IMG/VR virus record: IMGVR_UViG_2681813232_000002
DNA length: 35,822 nt
Reading direction: 5' to 3' (one strand)
DNA from: a virus
Taxonomy: Duplodnaviria > Heunggongvirae > Uroviricota > Caudoviricetes
Both the position numbers and the translations under genes were made by a program. This document shows positions 8,758-35,822 of the stretch, piece by piece (the stretch's first letter is position 1; each line of letters opens with the position of its first letter). Under the pieces are notes generated by a model, which made no database searches, was not told the origin of the DNA, and worked only from the letters and a program-made list of their open reading frames with translations.

Positions 8758-8766
8758 GGGATGTTT

Positions 8767-10179: not shown

Positions 10180-10181
10180 TC

Positions 10182-10204: not shown

Positions 10205-10220
10205 CTCTGTGGAGGAGTCC

Positions 10221-10616: not shown

Positions 10617-10627
10617 CGGGAGGCGCT

Positions 10628-10981: not shown

Positions 10982-10992
10982 AAGGGGGATGT

Positions 10993-11963: not shown

Positions 11964-11970
11964 GGACGCT

Positions 11971-12711: not shown

Positions 12712-12726
12712 TCCGGAGAGTCAGAG

Positions 12727-16137: not shown

Positions 16138-16463
16138 AAACCTTCCGCTGGAAAGTGAAACCCGGTATGGATGTGGCTTCGGCCCCTTCTGTAAGAAAGG
16201 TGCGCTTTGGTGATGGCTATTCCCAGCGAGCGCCTGCCGGGCTGAATGCCAACCTGAAAACGTACAGCGTGACGCTTTCTGTCCCCCGTGAGGAGGCCAC
16301 GGTACTGGAGTCGTTTCTGGAAGAGCACGGGGGCTGGAAAGCCTTTCTGTGGACGCCGCCTTATGAGTGGCGGCAGATAAAGGTGACCTGCGCAAAATGG
16401 TCGTCGCGGGTCAGTATGCTGCGTGTTGAGTTCAGCGCAGAGTTTGAACAGGTGGTGAACTGA
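16134..16463 (+). CDS. M: Tail tip protein M
   Basis: 109 aa, MKTFRWKVKPGMDVAS...; matches recalled lambda gpM. Confidence 0.95.
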   Translation: MKTFRWKVKPGMDVASAPSVRKVRFGDGYSQRAPAGLNANLKTYSVTLSVPREEATVLESFLEEHGGWKAFLWTPPYEWRQIKVTCAKWSSRVSMLRVEFSAEFEQVVN

Positions 16464-17161: not shown

Positions 17162-17166
17162 ATCCC

Positions 17167-17910: not shown

Positions 17911-18479
17911 AAACGGGGGCTGAAGCCATCCGCGCACTGGCCACACAGCTCCCGGCGTTTCGTCAGAAACTGAGCGACGGCTGGTATCAGGTACGGATTG
18001 CCGGGCAGGATGTCAGCACGTCCGGATTAACGGCGCAGTTACATGAGACTCTGCCTGATGGCGCTGTGATTCATATTGTTCCCAGAGTCGCCGGGGCCAA
18101 GTCAGGTGGCGTATTCCAGATTGTCCTGGGAGCAGCCGCCATTGCCGGATCATTCTTTACCGCCGGAGCCACCCTTGCAGCATGGGGGGCAGCCATTGGG
18201 GCCGGTGGTATGACCGGCATCCTGTTTTCTCTCGGTGCCAGTATGGTGCTCGGTGGTGTGGCGCAGATGCTGGCACCGAAAGCCAGAACTCCCCGTACAC
18301 AGACAACGGATAACGGCAAACAGAACACCTATTTCTCCTCACTGGATAACATGGTTGCCCAGGGCAATGTTCTGCCTGTTCTGTACGGTGAAATGCGCGT
18401 GGGGTCACGCGTGGTTTCTCAGGAGATCAGCACGGCAGACGAAGGGGATGGTGGTCAGGTTGTGGTGATTGGTCGCTGA
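17808..18479 (+). CDS. I: Tail tip assembly protein I
   Basis: 223 aa, overlaps the 3' end of K as in lambda; ubiquitin-like N-terminus and glycine-rich hydrophobic segment. Confidence 0.9.
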   Translation: MAATHTLPLASPGMARICLYGDLQRFGRRIDLRVKTGAEAIRALATQLPAFRQKLSDGWYQVRIAGQDVSTSGLTAQLHETLPDGAVIHIVPRVAGAKSGGVFQIVLGAAAIAGSFFTAGATLAAWGAAIGAGGMTGILFSLGASMVLGGVAQMLAPKARTPRTQTTDNGKQNTYFSSLDNMVAQGNVLPVLYGEMRVGSRVVSQEISTADEGDGGQVVVIGR

Positions 18480-18539
18480 TGCAAAATGTTTTATGTGAAA
18501 CCGCCTGCGGGCGGTTTTGTCGTTTATGGAGCGTGAGGA

Positions 18540-21500
18540 ATGGGTAAAGGCAGCAGTAAGGGGCATACCCCGCGCGAAGCGAAGGACAACCTGAAGTCCA
18601 CGCAGCTGCTGAGTGTGATCGATGCCATCAGCGAAGGGCCGGTTGAAGGTCCGGTGGATGGATTAAAAAGCGTGCTGCTGAACAGTACGCCGGTGCTGGA
18701 CAGTGAGGGGAATACCAATATATCCGGCGTCACGGTGGTGTTCCGGGCAGGTGAGCAGGAGCAGTCACCGCCGGAGGGATTTGAATCCTCCGGCTCCGAG
18801 ACGGTGCTGGGTACGGAAGTGAAATATGACACGCCGATCACCCGCACCATTACGTCGGCAAACATTGACCGTCTGCGCTTTACCTTCGGTGTACAGGCAC
18901 TGGTGGAAACCACCTCAAAGGGTGACAGGAATCCGTCGGAAGTCCGTCTGCTGGTTCAGATACAGCGTAATGGTGGCTGGGTGACGGAAAAAGACATCAC
19001 CATTAAGGGCAAAACCACCTCGCAGTATCTGGCCTCGGTGGTGGTGGGTAACCTGCCGCCGCGCCCGTTCAATATACGGATGCGCAGGATGACGCCGGAC
19101 AGCACCACAGACCAGCTGCAGAACAAAACGCTCTGGTCGTCATACACCGAAATCATCGATGTGAAACAGTGCTACCCGAACACGGCACTGGTCGGCGTGC
19201 AGGTGGACTCGGAGCAGTTCGGCAGCCAGCAGGTGAGCCGTAATTATCATCTTCGCGGACGCATTCTGCAGGTGCCGTCGAACTATAACCCGCAGACGCG
19301 GCAATACAGCGGTATCTGGGACGGAACGTTTAAGCCAGCATACAGCAACAACATGGCCTGGTGTCTGTGGGATATGCTGACCCACCCGCGTTACGGCATG
19401 GGTAAACGTCTTGGTGCGGCAGATGTGGATAAATGGGCGCTGTATGTCATCGGCCAGTGTTGCGACCAGTCGGTGCCGGACGGTTTTGGCGGCACGGAGC
19501 CGCGCATCACCTGTAATGCCTGGCTGACCACACAGCGTAAGGTGTGGGATGTTCTCAGTGATTTCTGCTCGGCGATGCGCTGTATGCCGGTATGGAACGG
19601 GCAGACGCTGACGTTCGTGCAGGACCGGCCATCAGATAAGGTGTGGACCTATAACCGCAGTAATGTGGTGATGCCGGATGATGGCGCGCCGTTCCGCTAC
19701 AGCTTCAGCGCCCTGAAGGACCGCCATAATGCCGTTGAGGTGAACTGGATTGACCCGGACAACGGCTGGGAGACGGCGACAGAGCTTGTGGAGGATACGC
19801 AGGCCATTGCCCGTTACGGTCGTAACGTCACGAAGATGGATGCCTTTGGCTGTACCAGCCGGGGGCAGGCACACCGCGCCGGGCTGTGGCTGATTAAAAC
19901 GGAGCTGCTGGAAACGCAGACCGTGGACTTCAGCGTGGGTGCCGAAGGGCTTCGCCATGTACCGGGCGATGTCATTGAAATCTGCGATGATGACTATGCG
20001 GGCATCAGCACCGGTGGGCGCGTGCTGGCGGTGAACAGCCAGACGCGGACACTGACGCTCGACCGTGAAATCACGCTGCCAGCCTCCGGCACCACGCTGA
20101 TAAGCCTGGTTGACGGAAGTGGCAATCCGGTCAGCGTGGAGGTTCAGTCCGTCACCGACGGCGTGAAGGTGAAAGTGAGCCGTGTTCCTGACGGCGTTGC
20201 CGGATACAGCGTGTGGGGGCTGAAGCTGCCGACGCTGCGCCAGCGCCTGTTCCGCTGTGTGAGTATCCGTGAGAACGACGACGGCACGTATGCCATCACC
20301 GCCGTGCAGCATGTGCCGGAAAAAGAGGCCATCGTGGATAACGGAGCGCACTTTGACGGCGACCAGAGCGGCACGGTGAATGGTGTCACGCCGCCAGCAG
20401 TGCAGCATCTGACCGCAGAAGTCACCGCAGACAGCGGGGAATACCAGGTGCTGGCCCGCTGGGACACGCCGAAGGTGGTGAAGGGGGTGAGCTTTATGCT
20501 TCGCCTGACCGTGGCAGCGGATGACGGCAGTGAGCGACTGGTCAGCACGGCCCGGACGACGGAAACCACATACCGCTTCACGCAACTGACGCTGGGAAAC
20601 TACAGGCTGACAGTCCGGGCGGCAAATGCCTGGGGGCAGCAGGGCGATCCGGCATCGGTATCGTTCCGGATTGCCGCACCGGCAGCACCGTCGCGGATTG
20701 AGCTGACGCCGGGCTATTTTCAGATAACCGCAACGCCGCATCTTGCCGTTTATGATTCGACGGTACAGTTTGAGTTCTGGTTCTCGGAAAAGCGGATTGC
20801 GGATATCAGGCAGGTTGAAACCACAGCCCGCTATCTTGGCATGGCGCTGTACTGGATAGCCGCCAGTATCAATATCAAACCGGGCCATGATTATTATTTT
20901 TACGTTCGCAGTGTGAACACCGTTGGCAAATCGGCATTCGTGGAGGCTGTCGGTCAGCCGAGTGATGATGCATCCGGCTATCTGGATTTTTTCAAAGGCG
21001 AGATAGGGAAAACCCATCTGGCTCAGGAGCTGTGGACGCAGATTGATAACGGTCAGCTTGCGCCTGACCTGGCTGAAATCAGGACGTCCATTACGGATGT
21101 CAGCAATGAAATCACGCAGACCGTCAATAAGAAACTGGAAGACCAGAGTGCGGCAATTCAGCAGATACAGAAGGTTCAGGTTGATACAAATAATAACCTG
21201 AACAGCATGTGGGCTGTGAAGCTGCAGCAGATGCAGGACGGACGCCTTTATATCGCGGGTATTGGTGCCGGTATTGAGAACACCCCTGACGGCATGCAGA
21301 GTCAGGTGCTGCTGGCGGCGGACAGGATTGCGATGGTTAATCCTGCGAATGGCAACACAAAACCGATGTTTGTTGGTCAGGGCGATCAGATATTCATGAA
21401 CGACGTGTTCCTGAAACGCCTGACGGCCCCCACCATTACCAGCGGTGGAAATCCACCGGCATTTTCCCTGACACCGGACGGAAAGCTGACCGCTAAAAAT

Positions 21501-22037
21501 GCGGATATCAGTGGCAGTGTGAATGCGAACGCCGGGACGCTCAACAATGTCACGGTAAATGAAAACTGTACGATTAAGGGCATGCTGGAGGCGACTCAGG
21601 TCAGAGGTGACTTCGTTAAAGCTGTATCCAAATCATTTCCGAAACAGGCTGGTACGTGGGGTAACACGGAAACACCAAACGGGACGGTTACAGTCACCAT
21701 CAGCGATGATCATAACTTTGACCGTCAAATCATTATTCCGCCCATTATCTTTAACGGAATAGCGTATAGCGATCCGGGAAGTGGTAATAACCCGGGAGGT
21801 ACAAGATACACGGGTTATGGTTTTGAAGTTCGCAAAAACGGTGTATTAATCGCATCCAGAGAAACTAAAGGGGCCATTCCCGGTAGCTACAGTGCGGTTA
21901 TTGATATGCCGAGTGGCAGGGGAAGCGTCACTCTGGAGTTTAAGGTTTTCCATAAAGGCAATCAGTGGGCAGGTAATATCACCGACTGTACGGTGATTGT
22001 GACCAAAAAAGCTGCTTCCGGCATCAGTATTCGTTGA
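18540..22037 (+). CDS. J: Tail tip / central fibre protein J (host specificity)
   Basis: 1165 aa, [34 protein letters not shown]...; lambda gpJ-like over most of its length, with the C-terminal receptor-binding part diverged (see findings). Confidence 0.95.
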
Positions 22038-22057
22038 AGTTGTTATAACCCATATAA

Positions 22058-22084
22058 GGGCACCAGAAATGGTGCCTTTTTTAT
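22058..22084 (+). terminator. Rho-independent terminator after J
   Basis: GGGCACC-AGAAAT-GGTGCC followed by TTTTTTATT. Confidence 0.6.
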
Positions 22085-22106
22085 TGCAGAAAAGCGAGAG
22101 GTAATT

Positions 22107-22706
22107 ATGCGTAAACTTTATGCCGCCATTTTGTCCGCAGCCATTTGTCTGGCCGTATCCGGTGCGCCTGCATGGGCATCTGAACATCAGTCCACGCTGA
22201 GCGCGGGGTATCTTCATGCCCGGACCAACGTTCCCGGCAGCGATGATCTGAACGGGATTAACGTGAAATACCGTTATGAGTTTACGGACACACTGGGGCT
22301 GGTGACGTCATTCAGCTATGCAGGAGACAAGAATCGCCAGCTTACCCGTTACAGCGATACCCGCTGGCATGAAGATTCCGTTCGTAACCGCTGGTTCAGC
22401 GTAATGGCGGGGCCGTCTGTGCGCGTGAATGAATGGTTCAGCGCGTATGCGATGGCGGGTGTGGCTTACAGCCGTGTGTCGACTTTCTCCGGGGATTATC
22501 TCCGCGTAACTGACAACAAGGGGAAAACGCACGAAGTGCTGACCGGAAGTGATGACGGTCGCCACAGCAACACGTCTCTGGCGTGGGGGGCTGGCGTGCA
22601 GTTTAACCCGACCGAATCCGTGGCCATTGATATTGCTTATGAAGGCTCCGGCAGTGGCGACTGGCGCACTGACGGTTTCATCGTGGGTGTCGGTTATAAA
22701 TTCTGA
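22107..22706 (+). CDS. lom: Lom, outer-membrane beta-barrel protein of the Ail/Lom family
   Basis: 199 aa with signal peptide ([24 protein letters not shown]) and C-terminal ...VGVGYKF; lies after J as in lambda. Confidence 0.9.
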
Positions 22707-22733
22707 TTAGCCAGGTAACACAGTGTTATGACA

Positions 22734-22759
22734 GCCCGCCGGTTCAGGCGGGCTTTTTT
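22734..22759 (+). terminator. Rho-independent terminator after lom
   Basis: GCCCGCC-GGTTCAG-GCGGGC followed by TTTTTT. Confidence 0.65.
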
Positions 22760-22764
22760 GTGAG

Positions 22765-25700
22765 GTGAATATGGCAGTAAAGATTTCAGGTGTACTGAAA
22801 GACGGCGCAGGTAAACCGGTACAGAACTGCACAATCCAGCTGAAAGCAAAACGTAACAGCACCACGGTGGTGGCGAACACGGTGGCCTCAGAAAATCCGG
22901 ATGAAGCCGGGCGTTACAGCATGGACGTTGAGTACGGTCAGTACAGCGTTATTCTGTTGGTGGAAGGATTCCCGCCGTCACATGCCGGGACCATCACCGT
23001 GTATGAAGATTCTCAACCCGGTACGCTGAATGATTTTCTCGGTGCCATGACGGAGGATGATGCCCGTCCGGAGGCACTGCGCCGTTTTGAACTGATGGTG
23101 GAAGAGGTGGCGCGTAACGCGTCCGCAGTGGCGCAGAACACGGCAGCCGCGAAGAAGTCAGCCAGCGATGCCAGCACATCAGCCCGTGAGGCGGCAACCC
23201 GTGCGACTGATGCTGCAGGCTCAGCACGTGCAGCCAGCACGTCAGCCGGACAGGCCGCGTCGTCGGCTCAGTCAGCGTCTTCCAGCGCAGGAACAGCATC
23301 AACAAAGGCCACTGAAGCATCAAAAAGTGCTGCCGCCGCAGAGTCTTCAAAAAGCGCGGCAGCCACCAGTGCAGGTGCAGCGAAAACGTCGGAAATGAAT
23401 GCCGCAGCATCACAAAAATCTGCGGCCACATCTGCATCCACCGCGACCACGAAAGCGTCAGAAGCTGCCACCTCAGCCCGGGATGCGTCGGCTTCAAAAG
23501 TGGCGGCAAAATCATCAGAAACGAGCGCTGCCTCGAGCGCCGGCAGTGCAGCTTCCTCGGCAACGGCGGCAGGAAATTCCGCGAAGGCCGCAAAAACGTC
23601 TGAGACGAATGCGGATAACAGCGCACAGGCGGCAGCAGACTCACAAACTGCATCGGCAAACTCCGCGACAGCAGCCAAAAAATCAGAAACCAACGCGAAA
23701 AATAGTGAGGCAGCAGCAAAGGTCAGCGAAACCAACGCTAAAGCGTCAGAGAACAAGGCGAAAGAATATCTCGACAAGGTCGGGGGACTCGTCAGCCCGA
23801 TGACGCAATACGATTGGCCCGTTGTTACTGGTAATGAGTCTTTTTACATCAAGATCGCGAAACTTTCCGATCCCGGAAGCAACAATTGCCATGTAACGCT
23901 AATGGTTACTAATGCCGGTAACTACGGCTCCCCTTACGGAAACATTGACTTTATCGAGATCTCGGCGCGCGGTCTGCCTTCTTCGCTTACTGCGGATAAT
24001 GTATCCCGTTACCTGAGTATACGCCGCTTAGGGGCAACCGGGCTGACCGATGACAACCAGATGCGTTACGGCCTGGTTAAAGGTGATGGCTTTATTGAGG
24101 TTTGGGCCTTCCAGCGTGCATTTATCAACGGCGCAAAGGTTGCGGTACTGGCGCAGACGGCACGCACGGAATTATACATTCCAGACGGATTTGTTAAGCA
24201 AACCGCCGCGCCTTCTGGATATGTTGAAGGCAACGTTGTAAGGATTTACGACCAGGTAAACAAGCCGACTAAAGCAGATTTGGGTCTTTCTAATGCTATG
24301 CTTACAGGCGCTTTCGGTCTTGGCGGTAGCGGTCTTGTTTTGGATGGTAAAATGACCGATAAGGAACTACTACAAGAGCTAAGGGCGAAAGGTGGGTGTT
24401 TCTGGAGGTCAGGAAAACCAACAGGTAGCGAATCAACAATTTTCAGTCACGGTTCTGGTATATTCTCGCGGTGCGGCGATACGTGGTCAGCTATTAATAT
24501 CGATTACGAAAGCGGTAGAGTAAAGATTTACTCTAGTAACGATAATAGACTCAACAATGGTACTTTTAACATAAATGAGCTATACGGAACCAAATACAAG
24601 CCGTCGAAATCGGATGTTGGACTTAGCAATGTAACGAACGATGCGCAGGTAAAAAAAACCGGCGATATTATGTCAGGTGATCTGTCGATCACTAAAGCAA
24701 CACCTTCACTATACCTGCGTTCAAAAAGTGGAACCGCCCATGTATGGTTCCAAAATGAGGATCAGTCGGAACGCGGCGTTATTTTTGCGCCTACAAATAC
24801 TGATACGCTTGGCGAAGTTCACATCAGGGCTAAAAACGCAAAAGGTCAATCAAGTGGTGATTTTATTGTTCGTCACGACGGGATGGTAGAAGCCCTTAAT
24901 CTAAAAGTAACGAGAAAAATCAATGGAGCCACCGCAGAATTTGCAAACACAAGCACTAACTCCGATGATACCACGGTAAATATCAAAGGATCACAGCATA
25001 CGCCTTTGGTTTTAACGCGCAACAACACAATTAAAAACTTATCCATTGGGTTTAAGGTTGATGATGTTGATCAAAAATACCTGGGTATAGCTGGCGACGG
25101 TGATTTATATTTTGGTAGTTATTCTGACCACACAAAAAACAGCAAAGTGATCACACAAGCAAAACTAGATAGCGGGTTAACGGTAGGAGGTAAAACAACC
25201 TTTTCTGACCTTGCTACATTCAACGCAGGTATATCTGGAGCAATTGAACCTGAAAACATTTCTTCAGAGACTGTCGATCTTAATAATCTGACCATAAAAG
25301 ACACAGATAAAGGATCAGTTAAATACTATCAATGCAGAACTGCCGGAGGTGGTGCAAATATTACCAATAAGCCTGACGGCGTAGGCGGCAACTTTTTGCT
25401 TCGTGTAGAGTCAATTCGTAAGGTTAGTGATTCAGATTATATAAACATGCAAACGCTGATTAGCGGCGACAAAGGACGCGTGTATGTTCGTTTTGTTACT
25501 AATGGTAATTTTACAGCATGGAGCGAGCATGTTGTTTCAGGATGGAATCAGGATGTGACCGTCAGGTCGTTAACCTCGACGACTCCATCAAAATTAGGTG
25601 GCGGGCGGATTGATGTGCTTGGAAGTACGTCAGATTATGGCGAGATGAATTGTACTGTGCGTGGTGTTGATAGCACTGGAACTAATTCGGCGTGGTCTGT

Positions 25701-26529
25701 AGGTACATCAGAAAGCACAGGAAAAATGTTGTACCTGAAAAACCACAGAAGCAGCGCTCAAGTGCTGTTAAATGGCGATGATGGCGCGGTGCAACTACTA
25801 AGCGGTACTGTCAACGGTGCTACAGCACAGGCGCTAACCATCAACAAAGATGAGGTTAACTCAACTGTTAATTTAACCCTTACAAAACAATCAGGGACTG
25901 GCAATCGTTTTGTTTTACAGAACGCAGGTAATGCAGAACTACCGTTTTTTGTCAGTGTGTGGGGTTCCAGTACTCGACAAAACGTTCTTGAGGTTGGAAC
26001 GTCTGCTGCGTATCTGTTTTATGCGCAAAGAACGCCAGCAGGCCAGTTGTTTGATGTAAATGGCGCTATTAATTGCACAACGCTGAATCAGTCATCAGAC
26101 CGCGACCTTAAAGACGATATTCTCGTTATCAGCGACGCGACGAAAGCAATCCGTAAAATGAACGGATACACCTACACGCTCAGGGAAAACGGGATGCCTT
26201 ATGCTGGCGTTATTGCACAGGAAGTAATGGAGGCGATACCAGAAGCTGTGGGATCGTTTACTCATTACGGTGAAGAGTTGCAGGGACCAACGGTTGACGG
26301 CAACGAGCTACGCGAAGAAACGCGCTATCTTAATGTTGACTACGCCGCCGTGACGGGTTTACTTGTTCAGGTCGCCCGTGAAACAGATGATCGCGTTACC
26401 GCGCTGGAAGAGGAAAACACAACGCTACGTCAAAATCTGGCAACAGCAGGCACCCGGATCAGCACTCTGGAAAATCAGGTAAGCGAACTGGTTGCACTTG
26501 TCCGGCAGTTAACAGGAAGCGAACATTGA
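22765..26529 (+). CDS. stf: Side tail fibre protein (Stf-like), chimeric: lambda-Stf-like N-terminus, divergent distal region, C-terminal intramolecular-chaperone (peptidase S74-like) domain
   Basis: 1254 aa. N-terminus MAVKISGVLKDGAGKPVQNCTIQLKAKRNSTTV... matches recalled lambda Stf. Ala/Ser-rich repeat region follows. C-terminus has an S-D-R-D-L-K-D-D-I motif followed by a coiled-coil (LEEENTTLRQNL...LENQVSELVALVRQL). Confidence 0.9.
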   Translation: MNMAVKISGVLKDGAGKPVQNCTIQLKAKRNSTTVVANTVASENPDEAGRYSMDVEYGQYSVILLVEGFPPSHAGTITVYEDSQPGTLNDFLGAMTEDDARPEALRRFELMVEEVARNASAVAQNTAAAKKSASDASTSAREAATRATDAAGSARAASTSAGQAASSAQSASSSAGTASTKATEASKSAAAAESSKSAAATSAGAAKTSEMNAAASQKSAATSASTATTKASEAATSARDASASKVAAKSSETSAASSAGSAASSATAAGNSAKAAKTSETNADNSAQAAADSQTASANSATAAKKSETNAKNSEAAAKVSETNAKASENKAKEYLDKVGGLVSPMTQYDWPVVTGNESFYIKIAKLSDPGSNNCHVTLMVTNAGNYGSPYGNIDFIEISARGLPSSLTADNVSRYLSIRRLGATGLTDDNQMRYGLVKGDGFIEVWAFQRAFINGAKVAVLAQTARTELYIPDGFVKQTAAPSGYVEGNVVRIYDQVNKPTKADLGLSNAMLTGAFGLGGSGLVLDGKMTDKELLQELRAKGGCFWRSGKPTGSESTIFSHGSGIFSRCGDTWSAINIDYESGRVKIYSSNDNRLNNGTFNINELYGTKYKPSKSDVGLSNVTNDAQVKKTGDIMSGDLSITKATPSLYLRSKSGTAHVWFQNEDQSERGVIFAPTNTDTLGEVHIRAKNAKGQSSGDFIVRHDGMVEALNLKVTRKINGATAEFANTSTNSDDTTVNIKGSQHTPLVLTRNNTIKNLSIGFKVDDVDQKYLGIAGDGDLYFGSYSDHTKNSKVITQAKLDSGLTVGGKTTFSDLATFNAGISGAIEPENISSETVDLNNLTIKDTDKGSVKYYQCRTAGGGANITNKPDGVGGNFLLRVESIRKVSDSDYINMQTLISGDKGRVYVRFVTNGNFTAWSEHVVSGWNQDVTVRSLTSTTPSKLGGGRIDVLGSTSDYGEMNCTVRGVDSTGTNSAWSVGTSESTGKMLYLKNHRSSAQVLLNGDDGAVQLLSGTVNGATAQALTINKDEVNSTVNLTLTKQSGTGNRFVLQNAGNAELPFFVSVWGSSTRQNVLEVGTSAAYLFYAQRTPAGQLFDVNGAINCTTLNQSSDRDLKDDILVISDATKAIRKMNGYTYTLRENGMPYAGVIAQEVMEAIPEAVGSFTHYGEELQGPTVDGNELREETRYLNVDYAAVTGLLVQVARETDDRVTALEEENTTLRQNLATAGTRISTLENQVSELVALVRQLTGSEH
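23095..23760 (+). repeat. Low-complexity Ala/Ser/Thr-rich repeat region inside stf (GCx/TCx/ACx codon repeats)
   Basis: Protein segment ...SASDASTSAREAATRATDAAGSARAASTSAGQAASSAQSASSSAG... repeated over about 220 aa; it generates the many spurious overlapping ORFs on both strands here. Confidence 0.7.
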
Positions 26530-26712
26530 TATCCTTCAAGCTCTGAAGGAGGCTGTTCCCGGTACGTTCAGACTGTTGTTGAGCTGGAAATCGCAACGGA
26601 GGAAGAGAAAGCGTTACTGGCCGCATGGAAAAAGTATCGGGTGTTGCTGAACCGTGTTGATACATCAACTGCACCTGATATTGAGTGGCCGGAAGAACCA
26701 GACACAATGTAA
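26530..26712 (+). pseudogene. Remnant 3' end of a tail-fibre assembly (tfa) gene, no start codon
   Basis: Directly after the stf stop the same frame stays open for 60 codons, ending ...[45 protein letters not shown], the conserved C-terminal signature of Tfa proteins as I recall it. No ATG or SD. Confidence 0.45.
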
Positions 26713-27246
26713 GCGAAAAAGAAAAACCGCAGACACGACGTATGCAGGACGTGCTGCGGTTGGCTGGTGAACTTCCGATAGTGCGAGTATTGAATGATTT
26801 CAAGCTGTTATCGATTTTACGTATTTTTGTATGAGAGGATTTCCACCACCTCCCACCGACCATCTAAGACTTTATGCCACTGTCCCTAGGACTGCTATGT
26901 ACTAGGAGCGGATGTTAAACTCAGACTCGTTTCAGCTACATTGCGTTTTGAATAATATTCCATCATAATAACTCTTTGAAAAATGTGATCTTTTCATTTA
27001 TAACACTGATGACTTGCTTATCTCATTGGGATATCGGAGGAGAATACTTAACTATGACAAGCCCGATTATTATGACACTGGCTATATTATATAGATTGAT
27101 ATTAAAATGTAGGATTAGGTTCTTGCCAAGGTGTCAAGATTTACAGATAGGTTTAAAACCATATAAATATGTTTTACGGTGAGATACAATACATATTGTA
27201 AGGCATAAACGCTTGGTAAAATTTTAATTATTGGAAGAAGCTAATC

Positions 27247-30200
27247 ATGGAACCCATATCAATTACAGTGGCAACTTATGTAGCAACTAAACTTATTGAT
27301 CAATTCATCTCTCAAGAAGGATATGGTTGTATTAAGAAAGCATTATTCCCCCAAAAAAGATATGTGGATAGATTATATCAACTAATTGAAGAGACGGCAA
27401 TTGAGTTTGAAGAAACATATCCAGTAGAAAGTGGAGCAATACCATTTTATCATTCCGAACCATTGTTTGAGATGTTGAATGAGCACATCTTTTTTAAAGA
27501 GTTCCCTGACAAAGAGATATTATTAGACAAGTTCAAAGAATATCCAAGTATCACTCCCCCAACTCAACAACAACTCAGCCTTTTTTATGAGATGTTATCA
27601 TTAAAAATCAATAATTGTTCGAAGTTAAAAAAGCTACATATCGAAGAAACGTATAAAGAAAAAATATTCGATATTAATGAAGAGCTCATTCAAGTCAAAC
27701 TTATTTTACGGTCTATAGATGAGAAACTAACTTTTCACTTAAGTGATGGTTGGTTAAATGAAAAAAATAGTCAAGCAATAGCTGACTTGGGAGGTCGATA
27801 CACACCCGAACTCAACGTAAAGCTAGAAATAGCAGAGATATTTGATGGCCTCGGTAGAACTAATGATTTTTCTAAAATATTTTATTCGCATATAGATAGC
27901 TTTCTGGTCGCTGGAAAGAAATTACATAGTTGCGATGTAATTTCCTCAGAATTATTTGAAATAAACCAGTCCTTAAAAGAAATTTCTGATATATATCAGG
28001 AGATTAATTTTTCTAAATTAGATGAAATCCCTATAAATAAATTTAATAACTATGTTTCTAGCTGCCAGACAGCTATTGGCGGAGCGGTATCAATATTGTG
28101 GGAACTCCGAGAAAAGTCAGAGCAAGTAGGTGAAACCAAGCATTACAGTGATAAGTATTCATCTACTCTGCGAATGCTTCGGGAATTTGACTATGCGTGC
28201 AATGAATTACGTATATTCATTAATTCAACAACAGTGAAGTTGGCTAACAACCCATTCTTACTTCTCGAAGGAAAAGCAGGAATTGGTAAGTCTCATTTAC
28301 TGGCTGATGTGATTAAAAATCGAATTGCTTCTGGGTATCCTTCACTACTCATACTAGGGCAACAACTTACTTCAGATGAATCTCCATGGTCACAAATCTT
28401 CAAGAGATTACAGCTTAAAATCACTTCTCGTGAATTCCTAGAAAAACTGAATTTATATGGCAAAAAAACAGGAAAAAGAGTCTTAGTTTTTATTGATGCT
28501 ATTAATGAAGGTAATGGAAATAAATTCTGGAATGACAATATTAACAGTTTTGTCGATGAAATCAGATGCTTTGAATGGCTTGGTCTGATAATGTCAGTCA
28601 GAACAACATATAGAAATGTAACAATTTCACATGAGAATGTTGTGCGAAATAATTTTGAAATTCATGAACATATTGGATTCCAGAACGTTGAGTTGGAAGC
28701 GGTTAGTCTATTTTATGATTATTACAATATTGAGAGGCCTTCATCTCCTAACCTTAATCCAGAGTTTAAAAATCCTCTATTTCTTAAGTTATTGTGTGAA
28801 GGCATTAAGAAAAATGGTTTAACCAAAGTGCCTGTTGGATTTAATGGGATTTCAAATATTTTTAACTTTTTAGTTGAAGGGGTAAATAAATCATTAGCAT
28901 CGCCAAAAAAATATGCATTCGATCCCAGTTTTCCTCTTGTTAAAGATGCTCTCAATGAAATCATAAAATTCAAATTAGAGATTGGTCGTAATAGTATTTC
29001 ACTTAAAGATGCTCACTCAGTGGTTCAATCTGTAGTTAATGATTATGTTGCTGATAAAACCTTCCTCAGCGCCTTGATTGACGAAGGATTATTGACTAAA
29101 GGCATAGTGAGAAATGATGATAATTCTACTGAGGAAGTAGTTTATGTGGCTTTTGAAAGGTTTGATGATCATTTAACTGTTAATTTTTTATTAAATGATG
29201 TTGAAAATATCGAAAGTGAATTTAAGCCTGATGGTCGTCTGAAAAAATATTTTCATGATGAATGTGATTTTTATATAAAATCGGGAATAGTAGAGGCGTT
29301 GTCTATTCAATTGCCAGAAAGGTATGAAAAAGAGCTTTATGAATTTCTGCCGGAGTTCAGCAATAATCTTAAATTACTAGAAGCCTTTATTGATAGCTTG
29401 ATATGGCGCGATATTAAGGCTATTGATTTCGAAAAAATTAGACCTTTCATCAATGAACATGTTTTTAAATTTAAAGATAGTTTTGATCATTTCCTCGAGG
29501 CAGTGATCTCTATTTCAGGTTTAGTTGGCCATCCCTTTAATGCTAATTTCTTGCATGATTGGCTAAAAGATTATTCTTTGGCAAATCGAGATTCGTTTTG
29601 GACTACAGAACTTAAATATAAATATAGTGAAGACTCAGCATTTAGGCATCTAATCGATTGGGCATGGGCCAGAACAGATAAAAGCTTTGTTTCGGATGAG
29701 TCAATCGAGCTAGTTGCAACTAGTTTATGCTGGTTTTTAACTTCTAGTAACCGAGAACTTCGAGATTGCTCAACTAAGGCTTTAGTGAGTTTACTCGAGC
29801 CAAGAATTCCTGTATTGAGAAAAATAATTGATAAGTTTTATGGTGTAAATGATCCTTACGTTTGGGAAAGAATATTTGCAGTTGCATTAGGCTGTACATT
29901 GCGAACTGATAATATTAAAGAACTAAAATATTTAGCCGAAACTGTTTACCAAAAGGTATTTTGTTCTAAGTATGTGTATCCAAATATATTACTTAGAGAT
30001 TATGCTAGAGAGATTATTGAATTTGCTAATCATCTTGGATTGGAACTTGAAAGCATTGAATTATCCAAGACTAGACCACCCTACAACAGCATTTGGCCTG
30101 ACAAGATTCCTTCAAAAGAGGAACTAGAGTCCCTTTATGATAAAGAACCTTATCGGGAACTCTGGAGCTCTATTATGGAAGATGGTGACTTTTCACGATA

Positions 30201-31701
30201 TACTATTGGAACAAATTATAATCATTCTGATTGGTCTGGTTGCAAGTTTAATGAAACCCCTGTTGACCGTAAGCAAGTTTTTAAAACTTTCAAATGTAAA
30301 CTAACTGATCAACAAAAAGACTTGTATGATGCCACAGATCCTTTCATTTATGATGATAAATGCGAAGGAATTAAATTTGGTCGTGTGGTCGGTAGAAAAG
30401 CACAGGAAGAAATAAAGGCGAGCAAGAAATTATTTAAGAATTCATTGTCATACGATCTGTTAAGTGAGTTTGAAAATGAAATAGAGCCATACCTGGATCA
30501 TAATAATAATCTGCTGGAAACTGATAAACACTTTGATCTTCGACTAGCTCAACAATTTATATTCAATCGTGTTATAGAGCTTGGTTGGGATCCGGAGAAG
30601 CATGGTAATTTTGACCAACAAATAGGAACTGGACGTGGACGTAGAGAGGCATTCCAAGAACGGATTGGTAAAAAATACCAATGGATTGCTTATTATGAAT
30701 ACATGGCAAGGCTAGCCGATAATTTTACTCGTTTTGAAGGTTATGGTGACGAACGAAAGGAAAATCCATACCAAGGGCCATGGGAGCCTTACGTAAGAGA
30801 TATAGATCCCACTATCTTACTTAAAGAAACTGGAACGAAAAAAATAAGCAATAAAGAAATGTGGTGGCTTAATGATGAAGTGTTTGATTGGACTTGCTCT
30901 AATGAAGACTGGGTTAAAAGTTCTACTACTATAACTAATTCATATGCTTTTATTGAAGTTAAAGATGATAATGGTGATGAATGGATAGTATTAGAAAGTC
31001 ATCCATCATGGAAAGAACCAAAAATTATTGGAAACGATGATTGGGGGCACCCACGAAAAGAGGTTTGGTATCAGATCAGAAGTTATATCGTTAAAGTTGA
31101 AGAATTTGAAAATTTTAGATGTTGGGCAATAGCTCAAGACTTTATGGGCAGGTGGATGCCGGAATGTACTGATAGATACCAATTATTTAATAGGGAGTAC
31201 TATTGGTCCGAAGCATTTAAGTCTTTTAAATCAGATTATTATGGTGGATCTGACTGGACTTCGGTAACAGACCGGGAGTCTGGAGCTAAGATAGCTGATG
31301 TTAGTGTCACTTCGATTAATTATTTGTGGGAAGAGGAGTTCGACAAATCAAAAATAGAAACTTTGAATTTTTTGAAGCCTAGTAACTTAATCTTTGAAAA
31401 GATGGGATTAAAAAGTGGGGAAGTAGAGGGTAGCTTCAATGATGAAAATGGAACTATGGTTTGCTTTGCAGCTGAAGCTGTATATGCTTCAAAGCCGCAT
31501 CTACTTGTTAAAAAAGAACCATTTTTAACAATGTTAAGGGACAATGGTTTTGAAATCGTTTGGACATTATTAGGTGAAAAGGGCGTTATAGGGGGCTCAC
31601 TCATATCAAGTCATCATTATGGTCGACAGGAGTTTAGTGGAGCATTTTATTATGAAGACAGTCAGCTAACAGGAAGTCATAAAACTAGCTTTACGAGATA
31701 A
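27247..31701 (+). CDS. Large P-loop NTPase (STAND/NACHT-like Walker A and B), 1484 aa; candidate single-gene anti-phage defence protein
   Basis: Strong SD (GGAAGAAG) 7 nt upstream of the ATG. Walker A FLLLEGKAGIGKSHLLADV (about residue 335); Walker B RVLVFIDAINEG (about residue 410). Visibly AT-rich compared with the flanking phage genes. Sits in the b-region position between the tail fibre and attR. Confidence 0.85.
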   Translation: MEPISITVATYVATKLIDQFISQEGYGCIKKALFPQKRYVDRLYQLIEETAIEFEETYPVESGAIPFYHSEPLFEMLNEHIFFKEFPDKEILLDKFKEYPSITPPTQQQLSLFYEMLSLKINNCSKLKKLHIEETYKEKIFDINEELIQVKLILRSIDEKLTFHLSDGWLNEKNSQAIADLGGRYTPELNVKLEIAEIFDGLGRTNDFSKIFYSHIDSFLVAGKKLHSCDVISSELFEINQSLKEISDIYQEINFSKLDEIPINKFNNYVSSCQTAIGGAVSILWELREKSEQVGETKHYSDKYSSTLRMLREFDYACNELRIFINSTTVKLANNPFLLLEGKAGIGKSHLLADVIKNRIASGYPSLLILGQQLTSDESPWSQIFKRLQLKITSREFLEKLNLYGKKTGKRVLVFIDAINEGNGNKFWNDNINSFVDEIRCFEWLGLIMSVRTTYRNVTISHENVVRNNFEIHEHIGFQNVELEAVSLFYDYYNIERPSSPNLNPEFKNPLFLKLLCEGIKKNGLTKVPVGFNGISNIFNFLVEGVNKSLASPKKYAFDPSFPLVKDALNEIIKFKLEIGRNSISLKDAHSVVQSVVNDYVADKTFLSALIDEGLLTKGIVRNDDNSTEEVVYVAFERFDDHLTVNFLLNDVENIESEFKPDGRLKKYFHDECDFYIKSGIVEALSIQLPERYEKELYEFLPEFSNNLKLLEAFIDSLIWRDIKAIDFEKIRPFINEHVFKFKDSFDHFLEAVISISGLVGHPFNANFLHDWLKDYSLANRDSFWTTELKYKYSEDSAFRHLIDWAWARTDKSFVSDESIELVATSLCWFLTSSNRELRDCSTKALVSLLEPRIPVLRKIIDKFYGVNDPYVWERIFAVALGCTLRTDNIKELKYLAETVYQKVFCSKYVYPNILLRDYAREIIEFANHLGLELESIELSKTRPPYNSIWPDKIPSKEELESLYDKEPYRELWSSIMEDGDFSRYTIGTNYNHSDWSGCKFNETPVDRKQVFKTFKCKLTDQQKDLYDATDPFIYDDKCEGIKFGRVVGRKAQEEIKASKKLFKNSLSYDLLSEFENEIEPYLDHNNNLLETDKHFDLRLAQQFIFNRVIELGWDPEKHGNFDQQIGTGRGRREAFQERIGKKYQWIAYYEYMARLADNFTRFEGYGDERKENPYQGPWEPYVRDIDPTILLKETGTKKISNKEMWWLNDEVFDWTCSNEDWVKSSTTITNSYAFIEVKDDNGDEWIVLESHPSWKEPKIIGNDDWGHPRKEVWYQIRSYIVKVEEFENFRCWAIAQDFMGRWMPECTDRYQLFNREYYWSEAFKSFKSDYYGGSDWTSVTDRESGAKIADVSVTSINYLWEEEFDKSKIETLNFLKPSNLIFEKMGLKSGEVEGSFNDENGTMVCFAAEAVYASKPHLLVKKEPFLTMLRDNGFEIVWTLLGEKGVIGGSLISSHHYGRQEFSGAFYYEDSQLTGSHKTSFTR

Positions 31702-31802
31702 AAATGAATCTCAGAGCTGAATATATAAGTAGTATTAGAAACCGGGTTATACTTAAGAAATCAATCTTAAGTGTGGCAGTCGAATGGTAGCTAATATGCT
31801 AG

Positions 31803-31838
31803 CGGCGCTAATGCCTGTTTGTTGCTCATAACAGGCAT
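31803..31838 (+). terminator. Possible hairpin terminator downstream of the large NTPase gene
   Basis: AATGCCTGTT-TGTTGCTCAT-AACAGGCATT inverted repeat followed by a T-containing tract; weak. Confidence 0.3.
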
Positions 31839-32084
31839 TCACTTTAGTTATGGCAGAAAAGTATACATGCTGGGTTGGGAAAGTGTGAAAGAAAGGAAGA
31901 TTGCTGCGCCGTTTGTCGTCACGTTTATCTTCATTGGCTATGCAAGTCGTAATAAAAGGTGGGACAAAACTGAGACACATAAAGCCTCGCAATGGCTTGC
32001 AAGGCTTTACATGTTTTGATGTGGTGGGATGTGTGAGCGCAGTGTTGATGGGGTAATGCTTTGAATTAGAAGCGGATTCTTATA

Positions 32085-32130
32085 ATTCGTAATGCGAAGG
32101 TCGTAGGTTCGACTCCTATTATCGGCACCA
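32085..32130 (+). repeat. 46-bp copy of the 3' end of tRNA-Thr(CGU) (thrW-type), ending in CCA; att core duplicate (probable prophage attR), not a functional tRNA
   Basis: ATTCGTAATGCGAAGGTCGTAGGTTCGACTCCTATTATCGGCACCA matches the anticodon-loop to 3' end of E. coli tRNA-Thr(CGU) as recalled. The D-arm and 5' acceptor strand are absent upstream. Confidence 0.8.
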
Positions 32131-32294
32131 TCACCTAGTTTTCCCAAGTCAACCCACATCAACAAAATCATTTAAAAACATATATATTACGTTGTTTTCA
32201 TACGTTTGAGGTCAACCCTTGTCTCTTGAAATCAACACGCGGTTGGGGGCACAATCAGGGGCATGTTCTGTTCGATCTAGGAAATGTGCCCCCA

Positions 32295-33485
32295 ATGATG
32301 CTGAATGCCCGCAAGGTTGAAGCTGCGAAAGGAAAAGAGAAGAGCTACAAGCTGTTTGATGGAGGTGGCCTATACCTTCAGGTCGAACCTAATGGCTCGC
32401 GTTACTGGCGTATGAAATACCGTTTTGCTGGTAAAGAGAAACGATTGTCCTTTGGTGTTTATCCAACAGTCACACTTGCTGATGCCAGACAAAAACGAGA
32501 AGACGCGAAGAAACTACTCGCAGCAGGTGAAGATCCCGGCGAAGTCAAAAAAGCCAAAAAGCAGGCTTTAAATGCAGCGAGTGAGACACTTAACCCATTC
32601 AGAGAAGTGGCGTTAGAGTGGCACAAAATGAAATCACCCAAATGGTCTGAGGGCTATGCTTCCGACATCATTGAGGCATTCGAGAAAGACATTTTCCCGC
32701 ATATTGGGCACAGACCTATAGCTGATATTCAGCCCCTTGAACTGCTTGAAGTTCTGAGGTTGATAGAAGCTCGAGGCGCTATGGAGAAAGCGAAGAAAGT
32801 CCGTCAGCGATGCGGTGAAGTTTTTCGCTATGCCATCGTAACGGGTAGGGCAATCTACAATCCGGCACCGGATCTTGCCAGTGCGATGCAAGGACATGAA
32901 GCAGTCCACTATCCATTCCTCAAAGCCAACGAACTACCGGAGTTCTTTAATGCCCTTAATTCTTATTCAGGAAGTCCAATTGTATTGTTGGGGGCGCATT
33001 TACTTATCCTGACAGGTCTACGAACTGGAGAACTACGAGCAGGTGAGTGGCGAGAGGTGGATTTTGATAATGCGGTGTGGGAGATCCCAAAAGAACGTAT
33101 GAAAATGCGTAGGAGCCATATTGTCCCGTTGTCAAAACAAGCATTATCCCATCTCAAAAGTTTGAAAGAACTAACTGGGAACTACCCGCTGATGTTCCCT
33201 GGACGCAACGATCCCAGCAAATTTATGAGTGAAGCAAGCATTAATCAGGTGTTTAAACGTATTGGATATGCAGGGCGTGTTACGGGGCATGGTTTCAGGC
33301 ATACGATGAGTACAATCCTACATGAGAAAGGATTTAACAGCGCTTGGATTGAAACCCAGCTTGCTCATTCGGACAAAAACTCTATTCGTGGAATTTATAA
33401 CCATGCCCAATATCTCGAAGGGAGAAGAGAAATGATGCAATGGTATGCTAATTATTTATCTGAGCAAATTGGTACTCATAAATGA
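32295..33485 (+). CDS. int: Tyrosine recombinase/integrase, P4-like (genomic-island type)
   Basis: MMLNARKVEAAKGKEKSYKLFDGGGLYLQVEPNGSRYWRMKYRFAGKEKRLSFGVYPTVTLADAR... is the typical P4-type N-terminal arm-binding domain. C-terminal catalytic region has R...HGFRHT...Y-like motifs. The ORF track starts at 32226 but there is no ATG before 32295. Confidence 0.9.
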   Translation: MMLNARKVEAAKGKEKSYKLFDGGGLYLQVEPNGSRYWRMKYRFAGKEKRLSFGVYPTVTLADARQKREDAKKLLAAGEDPGEVKKAKKQALNAASETLNPFREVALEWHKMKSPKWSEGYASDIIEAFEKDIFPHIGHRPIADIQPLELLEVLRLIEARGAMEKAKKVRQRCGEVFRYAIVTGRAIYNPAPDLASAMQGHEAVHYPFLKANELPEFFNALNSYSGSPIVLLGAHLLILTGLRTGELRAGEWREVDFDNAVWEIPKERMKMRRSHIVPLSKQALSHLKSLKELTGNYPLMFPGRNDPSKFMSEASINQVFKRIGYAGRVTGHGFRHTMSTILHEKGFNSAWIETQLAHSDKNSIRGIYNHAQYLEGRREMMQWYANYLSEQIGTHK

Positions 33486-34306
33486 ATATTTTAAAAATTA
33501 ATAATACTGATTCTCTGCTCAGAGATTACTACCAGTTGGATGAAGCTTCAGAAAAAATTGGTTGTAGTGAAAAGGATATACTCTGGTTTGCCAGAGAACG
33601 AGATGTAGAGCTATGCATGGAATTCCATGATGATGAGTATGATGTTTCATGTGGTTTGAAGATTGATGGTCAAATAGATGAGTTCTTATCTAATCTGAAA
33701 TATTTACCACGAGATAGAAATGGCAATATTATGTTGTCAGACTTAAGTTCTATAAGAATCCCTGATGAAGATAATTTAATTGATAAAAATGGTTTTATTC
33801 GATGCTTCATATCCGGTTTATGGGCTGTTGATTATGAATATAAAGATCTGTTAGTTAAGCATGAGGGGCAACCGGATTCCTGGCCTATTCATTTTCTACT
33901 GGCGGGTACGCCTAATATAAATTGTAAGGTAATTCTTTATGTAAATTATGATGAAAAAGAAAATTATTATCTTTTTGAGGTTTTGTGGATTACAAAGGTA
34001 CAGATTCAAAAATTCATTGATATAGTCTTATGCGAACAAAAGCGGATAAAAAACGCCAATAAATATAAATCACAATCTGAGGCGCAAAAACAAAAACATG
34101 CTGTTCCTCGAGCTGAAATACTCATGGCTATTATTTCGCTCTATCATCGTGATATGAGGCTAAGAAGAGAGAGTCCAGCAGCGATAGCTGATTATCTTTT
34201 TCAACATGCCAGTGAGTTCTGGCCTAAGACCGGAGAACCGCCTTTGAGCTATGATACTGTTGTTAGTTTGCTACGTAGTTGCATGAAAAACATTAAGTTT
34301 AACTAA
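33482..34306 (+). CDS. Hypothetical protein, AT-rich, translationally coupled to the integrase (ATGA overlap)
   Basis: 274-aa ORF with markedly AT-rich codon usage; no family recognised. Confidence 0.7.
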   Translation: MNILKINNTDSLLRDYYQLDEASEKIGCSEKDILWFARERDVELCMEFHDDEYDVSCGLKIDGQIDEFLSNLKYLPRDRNGNIMLSDLSSIRIPDEDNLIDKNGFIRCFISGLWAVDYEYKDLLVKHEGQPDSWPIHFLLAGTPNINCKVILYVNYDEKENYYLFEVLWITKVQIQKFIDIVLCEQKRIKNANKYKSQSEAQKQKHAVPRAEILMAIISLYHRDMRLRRESPAAIADYLFQHASEFWPKTGEPPLSYDTVVSLLRSCMKNIKFN

Positions 34307-34431
34307 ATATTAACAATTGTTGTGGCTAATGATTTTGAATTTTTTTCATTAGTCACATTTTTCTCATTTATAACCTATGTTTTAATTTTCCGTGTTGAAG
34401 CCAATAGACTTAGATAAACGGAGAATGATGA

Positions 34432-34722
34432 ATGTTATCTAAACATGATAATACTACTTTGCAACGACCTTCAATGGATTCTCTGATCGATATGAAGTTT
34501 ATTACTTCCGATTGTTTATTAAGTGATAAATGGATTTATCGATTGATTTCTCTGAATCGCTTTCCAAAACCTATAAAAATAGGTCGGATGTCACGATGGC
34601 GCGCTGCTGATTATTATAAGTGGCGAGATGGGTTTGAAGAAAACTCAGGTCAACAGTTTGAGGGGATGAGAAATAAGGCAAGAGCAATTAATAAAGGGAA
34701 TAGATTATCACCTACTCCCTAA
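34432..34722 (+). CDS. alpA: AlpA-family (phage_AlpA) helix-turn-helix regulator / excisionase-like protein
   Basis: Segment DMKFITSDCLLSDKWIYRLISLNRFPKPIKIGRMSRWRAADYYKWRD fits the AlpA pattern (HTH, FPKP.K.G, W..E...W). Start codon uncertain (34432, 34474 or 34492). Confidence 0.6.
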   Translation: MLSKHDNTTLQRPSMDSLIDMKFITSDCLLSDKWIYRLISLNRFPKPIKIGRMSRWRAADYYKWRDGFEENSGQQFEGMRNKARAINKGNRLSPTP

Positions 34723-34754
34723 GCCTTAATTGATAGTTAGTAATATTTAACTGA

Positions 34755-34929
34755 TTAGCCTTTAGGGTCAATCCCGCGTGATTGGAGTTCTTTGCGTAAA
34801 ATTCTTTTAATCCAAGTTGCCAACGCGCTATCTCCATCTTTGCGCATTTCGTTTTCGAGTTGCAACCTAAAATCGTCGGTAAGACGCATTTGGAATGGTG
34901 GAGAACGTTTCTCTTGTGGTGTTGACATG
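34755..34929 (-). pseudogene. Arc-like ribbon-helix-helix repressor gene, apparently disrupted by a 1-nt frameshift
   Basis: From ATG (34929) the frame reads MSTPQEKRSPPFQMRLTDDFRLQ then shifts. The -1 frame continues LENEMRKDGDSALATWIKRILRKELQSRGIDPKG to a TAA. The joined sequence has an Arc-like strand-helix-helix pattern. Shift is at a T-run near 34860-34862. Confidence 0.35.
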
Positions 34930-34951
34930 GTAATTACCCTAGAATATGATG
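34923..34951 (+). promoter_or_regulatory. Candidate sigma70 promoter: TTGACA, 17-nt spacer, TATGAT, reading rightward
   Basis: TTGACA at 34923-34928, 17-nt spacer, TATGAT at 34946-34951; near-consensus hexamers. Confidence 0.5.
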
Positions 34952-34967
34952 ACTACATGGTAATTAC
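34930..34967 (+). promoter_or_regulatory. Two copies of the perfect 10-bp palindrome GGTAATTACC flanking the -10 (candidate operators)
   Basis: ACATGGTAATTACC occurs at 34926-34939 and 34954-34967; the palindrome cores are 28 bp apart centre to centre. Confidence 0.45.
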
Positions 34968-35059
34968 CATTGTAAGTATAGTTCGCTTGTAAAAGCAATG
35001 CCCGATTGTGCGGGAACACAAATCGGGCATTTAACCAACCGTTATAAGAGGTAACGAAG

Positions 35060-35236
35060 ATGGCTAAACAGAAGTGTACCTGGTTATTTGCGGCGATCAA
35101 CCGCAGTCAACGCAATGCCCGTCCTGTGATGTTAAGGATCACCGCAGATAACGAGCGGTCAGCGCGGCGCAGACTTGCCCCGGACTATGTACTGAGCTTT
35201 GCCGGGCGCATTCCCTGCGGAGGTGAACATGCGTAA
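35060..35236 (+). CDS. Small ORF (58 aa), hypothetical; first gene downstream of the candidate promoter
   Basis: SD GAGG 7-8 nt upstream of the ATG (MAKQKCTWLFAAINRSQRNARPVMLRITADNERSARRRLAPDYVLSFAGRIPCGGEHA). Its stop overlaps the next start. Below the ORF-track cutoff. Confidence 0.4.
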   Translation: MAKQKCTWLFAAINRSQRNARPVMLRITADNERSARRRLAPDYVLSFAGRIPCGGEHA

Positions 35237-35588
35237 TTATCCGCATCCCGGCGAACGCTGGCAGCATGAACGTGGCTGGACGGTCACGATTATCCGATTA
35301 ATAGAAGCCTCGCCCTCTGTGGCGCTGGTTAATCCTGAATTCAGCTGTGAAGTGCTGATACGTCATGACAGCGACAACCAGCTTTCTTCCTGCCCTCTGG
35401 CATGGTTTGAACAGCGATATACGCGCCTGTTTGATGTACCGCTCTTTAAGCCTGCACCAGCTCCTGCAGGCGGTAGTGGTTCCGGCCCGCTGACACTGCA
35501 TCCGTCTGTGCTATTTATCCGCTGGCGGGAGCGTAGCATATGGCGTTCTGCTGAGCCTGATGACGGTCACTATTCAAAGTTTCTCTGA
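35229..35588 (+). CDS. Hypothetical protein (119 aa)
   Basis: Strong SD GGAGGTG just upstream of ATG 35229 (MRNYPHPGERWQHERGWTVTII...). The ORF track starts at 35199 but the internal start has the better RBS. Confidence 0.55.
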   Translation: MRNYPHPGERWQHERGWTVTIIRLIEASPSVALVNPEFSCEVLIRHDSDNQLSSCPLAWFEQRYTRLFDVPLFKPAPAPAGGSGSGPLTLHPSVLFIRWRERSIWRSAEPDDGHYSKFL

Positions 35589-35618
35589 CACAATACCGCT
35601 GAAAACGGAGTAATCCAC

Positions 35619-35822
35619 GATGAATATTTCAAACGGGCACAACGGTGCTCAGGGCCACACTTTGCCTGAAAAACACAATACCGGTGTTTTTGCCTATGGG
35701 TTGTCAGAGGACCGTTTCGGAAAGCTGACCCGCGCAAGAAATGCCTGCGACATGCTCCAGCTTCTCTTTTCTGAATACCCGTCTCAGGCCGGAGCACTGG
35801 ACACTGGCTGTGCGCATGGTGT
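35619..35822 (+). CDS. Hypothetical protein, 3'-truncated by the window edge
   Basis: ATG at 35619 (MNISNGHNGAQGHTLPEKHNTGVFAYGLSEDRFGKL...); frame open to the end of the window. Confidence 0.45.

Follow-up and report, generated by a model that had tools for sequence, protein, structure and literature searches.

A 46-nt thrW remnant at the junction of a lambdoid prophage and a P4-like satellite as the probable attR of an Sf/P22-type integration

Bacterial tRNA genes cut short within a sequence annotated as viral raise a simple question: which element did the cutting, and what lies on either side of the scar? We address it here for a stretch of 35,822 nucleotides assigned to the Caudoviricetes (hereafter the window), in which only the 3′ part of a tRNA-Thr gene is present, with a lambdoid prophage on its left and an integrase gene on its right (Table 1). 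A preliminary description, made from the letters of the window, had interpreted this fragment as the junction of two mobile elements in tandem, the prophage having entered a thrW-type gene through an integrase encoded beyond the left edge and the island on the right being an older resident of the same tRNA gene. As detailed below, the architecture proposed there was borne out at nearly every point by comparison with complete genomes and with annotated phage attachment sites, whereas the proposed order of arrival is less firmly anchored.

Table 1 Features of the window (strand + or −; positions counted from its first base)
Feature	Position	Strand	Remarks
Lambdoid prophage late region	1..26529	+	Lysis, Nu1/A-like terminase, portal, capsid, tail, tape measure, J, Lom, tail fibre
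Avs2 (AVAST type 2) anti-phage gene, 1484 aa	27247..31701	+	PADLOC Avs2 model, 1751 bits
P arm (attP half kept at attR)	31824..32084	+	Part shared with SfIV, SfII, SfI and P22: 31960..32084
3′ 46 nt of thrW, att core	32085..32130	+	From the base of the anticodon loop to CCA; T at 32131 also shared
Satellite left arm, attP-derived and upstream of the integrase gene	32132..32294	+	Same arm follows intact thrW in satellite-only genomes
P4-type tyrosine integrase, 396 aa	32295..33485	+	Identical to WP_040075774.1; Pfam; start 165 nt after CCA
Satellite gene, 274 aa	33482..34306	+	Position conserved across satellite copies
AlpA-like HTH regulator, 96 aa	34432..34722	+	Weak Phage_AlpA match, E = 4e-4, 20.6 bits against a cut-off of 21
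Icd-like cell-division inhibitor gene, 58 aa	35060..35236	+	Position fits an annotated Icd-like CDS in CP116188

The fragment is the 3′ end of thrW

Positions 32085..32130 of the window read ATTCGTAATGCGAAGGTCGTAGGTTCGACTCCTATTATCGGCACCA and are identical, at 46/46 positions, to nucleotides 31-76 of the tRNA-Thr gene located beside proA in Escherichia coli DETEC-E223 (L001 19507..19582), which confirms to the base the earlier recognition of the last 46 nt of a thrW-type tRNA. The left edge of the match falls exactly at 32085, and on the right the identity extends by one additional base, the T at 32131. Consistent with the claim that the upstream sequence encodes neither the D-arm nor the 5′ acceptor strand, the 5′-terminal 30 nt of thrW are found nowhere in the window, even when three mismatches are allowed. 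The first 23 nt of the fragment alone occur once in the window against an expectation of 0 by chance, and a chance origin of the fragment is excluded.

Standard searches pass over this remnant. ARAGORN called no tRNA on the full window, and Rfam models at the gathering threshold returned nothing on it; an Rfam E-value search centred on the site also missed the fragment, because truncated matches are scored only at the ends of a stretch. When the searched stretch was made to begin at 32085, the Rfam tRNA model yielded a 5′-truncated match covering model positions 30-71 of 71 (27.8 bits, E = 6.5e-4). The truncation of thrW at attR thus explains the absence of a tRNA gene call in the window.

The sequence left of the core is an Sf/P22-type attP arm

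The same 46-mer is well known from phages. It has been printed as the core of attP, attL and attR of SfI and is identical in SfII, SfV, SfX and P22, all of which, like SfI, integrate into thrW beside proA (PMC3636060); in prophage SfIV, a 46-bp site is present at both ends, and the conversion genes adjoin int-attP (PMC3851460). The alignments proposed earlier, to E. coli thrW and to the P22 attP core, recovered the identical 46-mer in both, as well as in the SfIV attP record. The expectation that the core would have the size used by P22-type phages holds with respect to the published 46-nt core (PMC3636060), the core annotated in P22 corresponding to positions 8-30 of the 46-mer.

Similarity to phage attachment sites does not stop at the core. 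The 125 bp preceding the fragment match the SfIV attP arm at 97% identity, and over 31960..32131 the identity is 97.1% with SfIV attP and 95.9% with the attP annotated in SfII (also that of SfI); P22 attP can be aligned to the arm as well, with moderate similarity only. In an alignment of the window, SfIV attP, P22 attP and thrW, TTCTTATA directly adjoins the core in the window and in both phages, and is missing from that place in thrW. Genomes in which the prophage carries other cargo still share 31809/31824..32131 with the window. The element integrated on the left was correctly identified, since the P arm of an Sf/P22-type attP lies directly left of the fragment.

Three GGGACA-like repeats (31960, 31971 and 32025) lie in the portion of the P arm that is conserved in the SfIV/P22 alignment and represent putative arm-type binding sites for Int. 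It should be noted that the motif TGRGAYR shows no enrichment across the full window (32 occurrences found versus 35 expected), so that the arm-type interpretation of the three P-arm copies draws only on their conservation in SfIV and P22 attP. A terminator-like hairpin on the minus strand (32014..31975; 18 pairs followed by a T-rich tail) is likewise conserved in SfIV and P22 attP. In the free phage it would be located downstream of int, across attP, a position recalling that of lambda sib/tI, and it may terminate int transcription that reads through attP. An apparent isrJ sRNA at 31981..32049 on the minus strand (17 bits, E = 0.9) was rejected, being merely this terminator-like P-arm hairpin.

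A lambdoid prophage with a probable P22-type integrase beyond the left edge

To the left of the Avs2 gene, the layout of open reading frames over 1..26529 matches, gene for gene, that of the annotated prophage in CP041392. The two sequences are 100% identical over 1..11338 and 99.75% identical over 10338..21569, with 3 differences up to position 21000, 2-5 differences over 22764..32131 and none over 25417..32131. The only divergent patch, with about 85 differences, spans 21000..22763, from the end of J through Lom into the start of the tail fibre gene; it has the appearance of host-range genes exchanged locally by recombination.

In CP041392, the prophage extends a further 13.3 kb to the left of the position matching window base 1, this end comprising an HTH/xis-like gene and the integrase WP_001132557.1, next to an intact tRNA-Thr gene and proA. 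The left prophage end is arranged in the same way in DETEC-E223, which is 100% identical to the window over 30800..33400. The integrase encoded in these proxy genomes is identical to SfIV Int at 371/372 positions (99.7%) and 90% identical to the P22 reference Int, and the intact thrW runs directly into the SfIV P′ arm, the P′ arm expected for the prophage being TTTAAATCAATAAGTTACAC. Hence, the P22-type, tRNA-targeting integrase that had been predicted beyond the left edge, and that is absent from the window, is present beside intact thrW in two complete proxy genomes (CP041392 and DETEC-E223), and the search upstream for an intact tRNA-Thr(CGU) gene with an int/xis pair found them in near-identical genomes, adjoining proA. 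In DETEC-E223, IS100 (IS21 family) interrupts the early region of the thrW prophage (L001 27936..29737), and this particular copy is probably defective as a result; the annotation of CP041392 shows no IS100 in the corresponding region.

Taken together with the conserved arm, these genomes make it very probable that the fragment is the attR of a lambdoid prophage integrated into E. coli thrW by a P22/Sf-type Int. One could instead imagine that thrW had been shortened by a deletion or interrupted by something unrelated, such as an IS element, with no prophage integration involved, and the missing 5′ 30 nt, the sole point in favour of such an event, would be accounted for. This would leave the conserved attP P arm, including TTCTTATA, abutting the core just as in P22 and SfIV, the edge of identity coinciding with the published 46-nt core (PMC3636060), and an intact thrW standing at the other end of the same prophage in the proxy genomes; moreover, there is no IS element at the junction. 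The P-arm homology and the attL of the proxy genomes refute this explanation, to which we attach practically no weight.

Avs2 as attP-proximal cargo

The Avs2 region is low in GC (0.31-0.37), and the matching genomes annotate the gene as avs2. Since the prophage end is delimited at 32131, Avs2 is assigned to the prophage, where it is the attP-proximal cargo, at the site at which SfIV and P22 carry gtrABC; in both of these phages, the cargo (gtrABC) is followed by attP, int and xis. A protein identical to the Avs2 of the window adjoins four different right-hand contexts, namely, the satellite described here (L025), two other satellites (L024/L028 and L026/L027/L029) and bare chromosome (L030), the identity to the window stopping at 32131 each time. 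In PCP06022 (L009 7495..12144), the same Avs2-bearing prophage end is followed by a different integrase and a Hachiman island (HamA and helicase), a further tandem partner at this 46-nt junction. As a further observation, Avs2 is a terminase-sensing STAND NTPase which here resides inside a prophage with a large terminase of its own.

A P4-like satellite on the right

The integrase gene directly to the right of the core had been taken for P4-type, and Pfam corroborates the P4-type domain architecture: Arm-DNA-bind_3 (9e-28), Phage_int_M (4e-35) and Phage_integrase (1e-25). Exact-sequence look-up places this integrase mostly directly after proA-thrW. The 274-aa protein encoded at 33482..34306 had no Pfam or PADLOC match, and the counterparts of the AlpA-like gene elsewhere are annotated as AlpA family or HTH regulators. 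The element extends beyond the end of the window, which includes its first 3.7 kb; over 32085..35822, the window is 99.84% identical to the satellite of MS1665, with values of 99.5-99.8% across copies. Full copies in other genomes encode a Zn-ribbon/Toprim/DUF927 primase, two Psu-family proteins (Sid and Psu) and Ogr/Delta, along with variable cargo, Drt3a/b in some genomes and an AAA ATPase with an S8 peptidase in others. Judging from these genes of its near-identical copies, the int-alpA island on the right is very probably a P4-like phage satellite.

A second copy of the 46-bp core had been expected to bound the island. A further thrW copy was indeed found, although it comprises only 19-24 bp, sometimes with a 1-nt deletion: at the far end of the satellite, MS1665 has a third thrW copy, CTCCTATTATCGGCACCAT, of 19 bp, and DETEC-E223 has GTTCGACTCCTATTATC-GCACCA, 24 bp with one G deleted. 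Both third copies are followed by the same chromosomal flank, consisting of a LysR fragment and paoD. The distal relic lacking one G (TATC-GCACCA) is present in DETEC-E223 (L002 29283..29305) and CP041392 (L011 ~6440..6425, minus strand), which carry different satellites, and is intact in MS1665 and L030. Some prophage-only genomes gave 505-nt instead of 506-nt matches. Were excision precise and its crossover located left of the missing G, the deletion would end up in the acceptor stem of thrW.

The junction is site-specific and recurs across genomes

After position 25416, the first difference between the window and CP041392 is at 32132, one base past CCA-T. Beyond this point, CP041392 diverges by ~30% over the first ~100 bases and is 70-74% identical per 500-base bin, which reflects the presence of a different satellite there. 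More generally, identity with CP041392, L024, L028 and L030 ends at 32131, and identity with satellite-only genomes begins at 32085. The two blocks of homology overlap only in the core, as is the signature of a site-specific junction, and the two elements are thereby delimited to the base, the prophage ending at 32131 and the satellite starting at 32132. On this reading, the core at 32085..32130 has two roles at once, attR for the prophage and left att site for the satellite.

To the right of the 3′ edge of the core, four different neighbours were seen. When the 3′ copies of thrW were tabulated across 31 fetched loci, the junctions were of four types: thrW, core and satellite arm; thrW, core and Sf-type P′ arm; P arm, core and satellite arm; and P arm, core and chromosome. 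In these loci, the left contexts (the 5′ half of thrW or the Sf-type P arm) combine freely with the right contexts (the Sf-type P′ arm, the arms of this satellite and of two others, the arm of the Hachiman island, or chromosome) around an invariant core. The same prophage end is joined to three satellites or to bare chromosome, and the same satellite to thrW or to several prophages.

Complete E. coli genomes (n = 5426) allow these states to be counted. The tandem junction, with the P arm, the core and the arm of this satellite in succession, is present in 17, attesting to the tandem array proposed in the preliminary description; this satellite stands directly behind an intact thrW in 50 (chimeric in-silico query, up to 100% identity), and chromosome directly follows the Sf-type P arm and core in 342. 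For two of the 17, the identity at the tandem junction is 99.4-99.8% over 541 bp. The closest record with the architecture of the window is L025, at 99.74% identity, and the prophage end of L030, in the prophage-only state, is 99.99% identical to that of the window.

The recurrence of the junction also bears on a technical concern, namely, that prophage and satellite contigs might have been joined artificially through the repeated tRNA sequence. A 46-nt repeat with 2-3 copies per locus can indeed mislead short-read assemblers. Against such a chimera, the same junction occurs in the 17 complete, mostly long-read, E. coli chromosomes and in the independent draft assemblies L018 and L025, and both module orders fit the chromosomal flanks proA and paoD; we therefore regard an assembly artefact as highly improbable.

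Two records at this locus deserve separate mention. In PEC1003 (L031 2435..2546), the fragment is bordered by a different element with an integrase of its own, the identity to thrW there extending over 48 nt, indicating that other phage families use the site too; the 112-nt RefSeq 'tRNA-Ser' in this genome, which combines unrelated sequence with the thrW 3′ fragment, is an annotation artefact, ARAGORN finding no tRNA there. In phage phi458 (OP434518; L004 3285..3330), what comes after the Sf-type P arm and core is not a P′ arm but 30 nt identical to the E. coli chromosomal flank that lies downstream of the thrW locus, and this 'complete phage genome' record may derive from a prophage boundary.

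Integration and order of arrival

The arrangement comprises three direct repeats of the 3′ end of thrW, namely, the 76-nt gene, the 46-nt copy and a copy of 19-24 nt, the outer two being known from the near-identical proxies; the intact thrW, the P22-type integrase and the third repeat all lie outside the window and were seen in these near-identical genomes. The phage arms stand on the expected sides of these repeats. In the Sf/P22 family, Int and host factors recombine attP and thrW within the shared core; the phage copy restores the gene at attL, and the original 3′ end, now displaced, is left at attR (PMC3636060). By analogy, a phage whose attP holds the last 46 nt of thrW would have recombined with thrW site-specifically via Int. 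At attL, the end nearest int and ~13 kb beyond the left edge of the window, the tRNA gene would have been made whole again, and the 46 nt cut from its 3′ end would have stayed at the far end (attR), behind the P arm and the Avs2 cargo. Right after CCA starts the second, unrelated element, the P4-like satellite, whose P4-type Int would use only the last ~19 nt of thrW and which, in the proxies, closes with the third, short thrW copy beside the LysR-fragment/paoD flank. Such recombination chemistry is presumed for this array on the strength of its att sequences.

As to which element arrived first, the view that the satellite is an older island, now displaced, is plausible, and we lean towards a history in which the phage lysogenised a strain already carrying the satellite. 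However, the core is complete for both integrases, and satellite-only (n = 50) as well as prophage-only (n = 342) genomes exist, so that the structure alone cannot fix the order of arrival. The reverse order, in which the phage first entered an empty thrW and the satellite later integrated into the 46-nt attR remnant rather than into the intact gene, strikes us as somewhat the less probable of the two. The remnant contains the whole ~19-nt satellite core and also the annotated P22 core; the prophage-only state is common, being found in 342 complete genomes and, with the same prophage end, in L030; and the final structure would be identical under either order. On the other hand, the satellite is more often located behind an intact thrW than in tandem (50 vs 17 genomes; 9/10 sampled places), and near-identical prophage ends are found beside three satellites or none, for which phage infection of strains that were already unlike at thrW is the simplest explanation. 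Neither of these two arguments is decisive.

A further proposition, which we consider improbable, is that the 46-nt remnant is a live secondary att site usable by both integrases. If this were the case, thrW arrays would grow distally, with satellites landing behind resident prophages, and the satellite Int could excise the prophage and the satellite as one composite through recombination between the intact thrW and the distal copy.

Relationship to known systems

The satellite described here resembles P4-like satellites in having a P4-type int at the 3′ end of a tRNA gene and an Icd-like gene and, as judged from full copies elsewhere, an alpha-like primase, Sid/Psu, Delta and variable defence cargo opposite int, but targets thrW, whereas P4 itself targets leuX. 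In P4-like satellites of Enterobacteria, the interval from psu to int is a hotspot for defence genes (Rousset et al. 2022, PMC9122126; Moura de Sousa and Rocha, PMC8628076), and thrW is an integration hotspot in E. coli, GI-thrW being a named island of ST131 (PMC4134206). Tandems of a phage and an ICE are reported as arrays of integrative elements at one tRNA gene (PMC13651849). The present locus shares with tandem arrays at tRNA genes the presence of two elements with different integrases at a single attB, a partial copy of the target between them and three repeats of decreasing length; in this case a lambdoid prophage is paired with a P4-like satellite, with no evidence of joint movement. 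Collectively, what is found at this locus is a P22/Sf att system and a known satellite class at a known hotspot, that is, biology already known, with no new mechanism implied, and the junction is a clean, textbook example of how modules come to occupy the thrW hotspot. The sole departure from known systems, the replacement of gtr by Avs2 as attP-proximal cargo, is unremarkable.

The closest relatives of the attachment site are the attR sites of the Shigella flexneri phages SfI, SfII, SfIV and SfV (in thrW, beside proA), which have an identical 46-nt core and a P arm with 96-97% identity. The resemblance to SfIV further includes the proxy Int (371/372 identical) and the same run of small genes behind int-xis, and Sf phages also carry their cargo directly beside attP (PMC3851460, PMC3636060). 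They differ from the window in that their cargo consists of gtr O-antigen glucosylation genes rather than Avs2, in their morphogenesis genes, which are replaced here by a lambda-like siphovirus module (J, Lom, Stf), and in the DNA beyond attR, which is chromosome in their case and a satellite in the window. Salmonella phage P22 has the same 46-mer in attP after TTCTTATA, a 90% identical Int (proxy) and the same order of cargo, attP, int and xis, but it is a podovirus with different late genes and a P arm that is only moderately similar, and the first base after CCA is G in P22 and T in the window.
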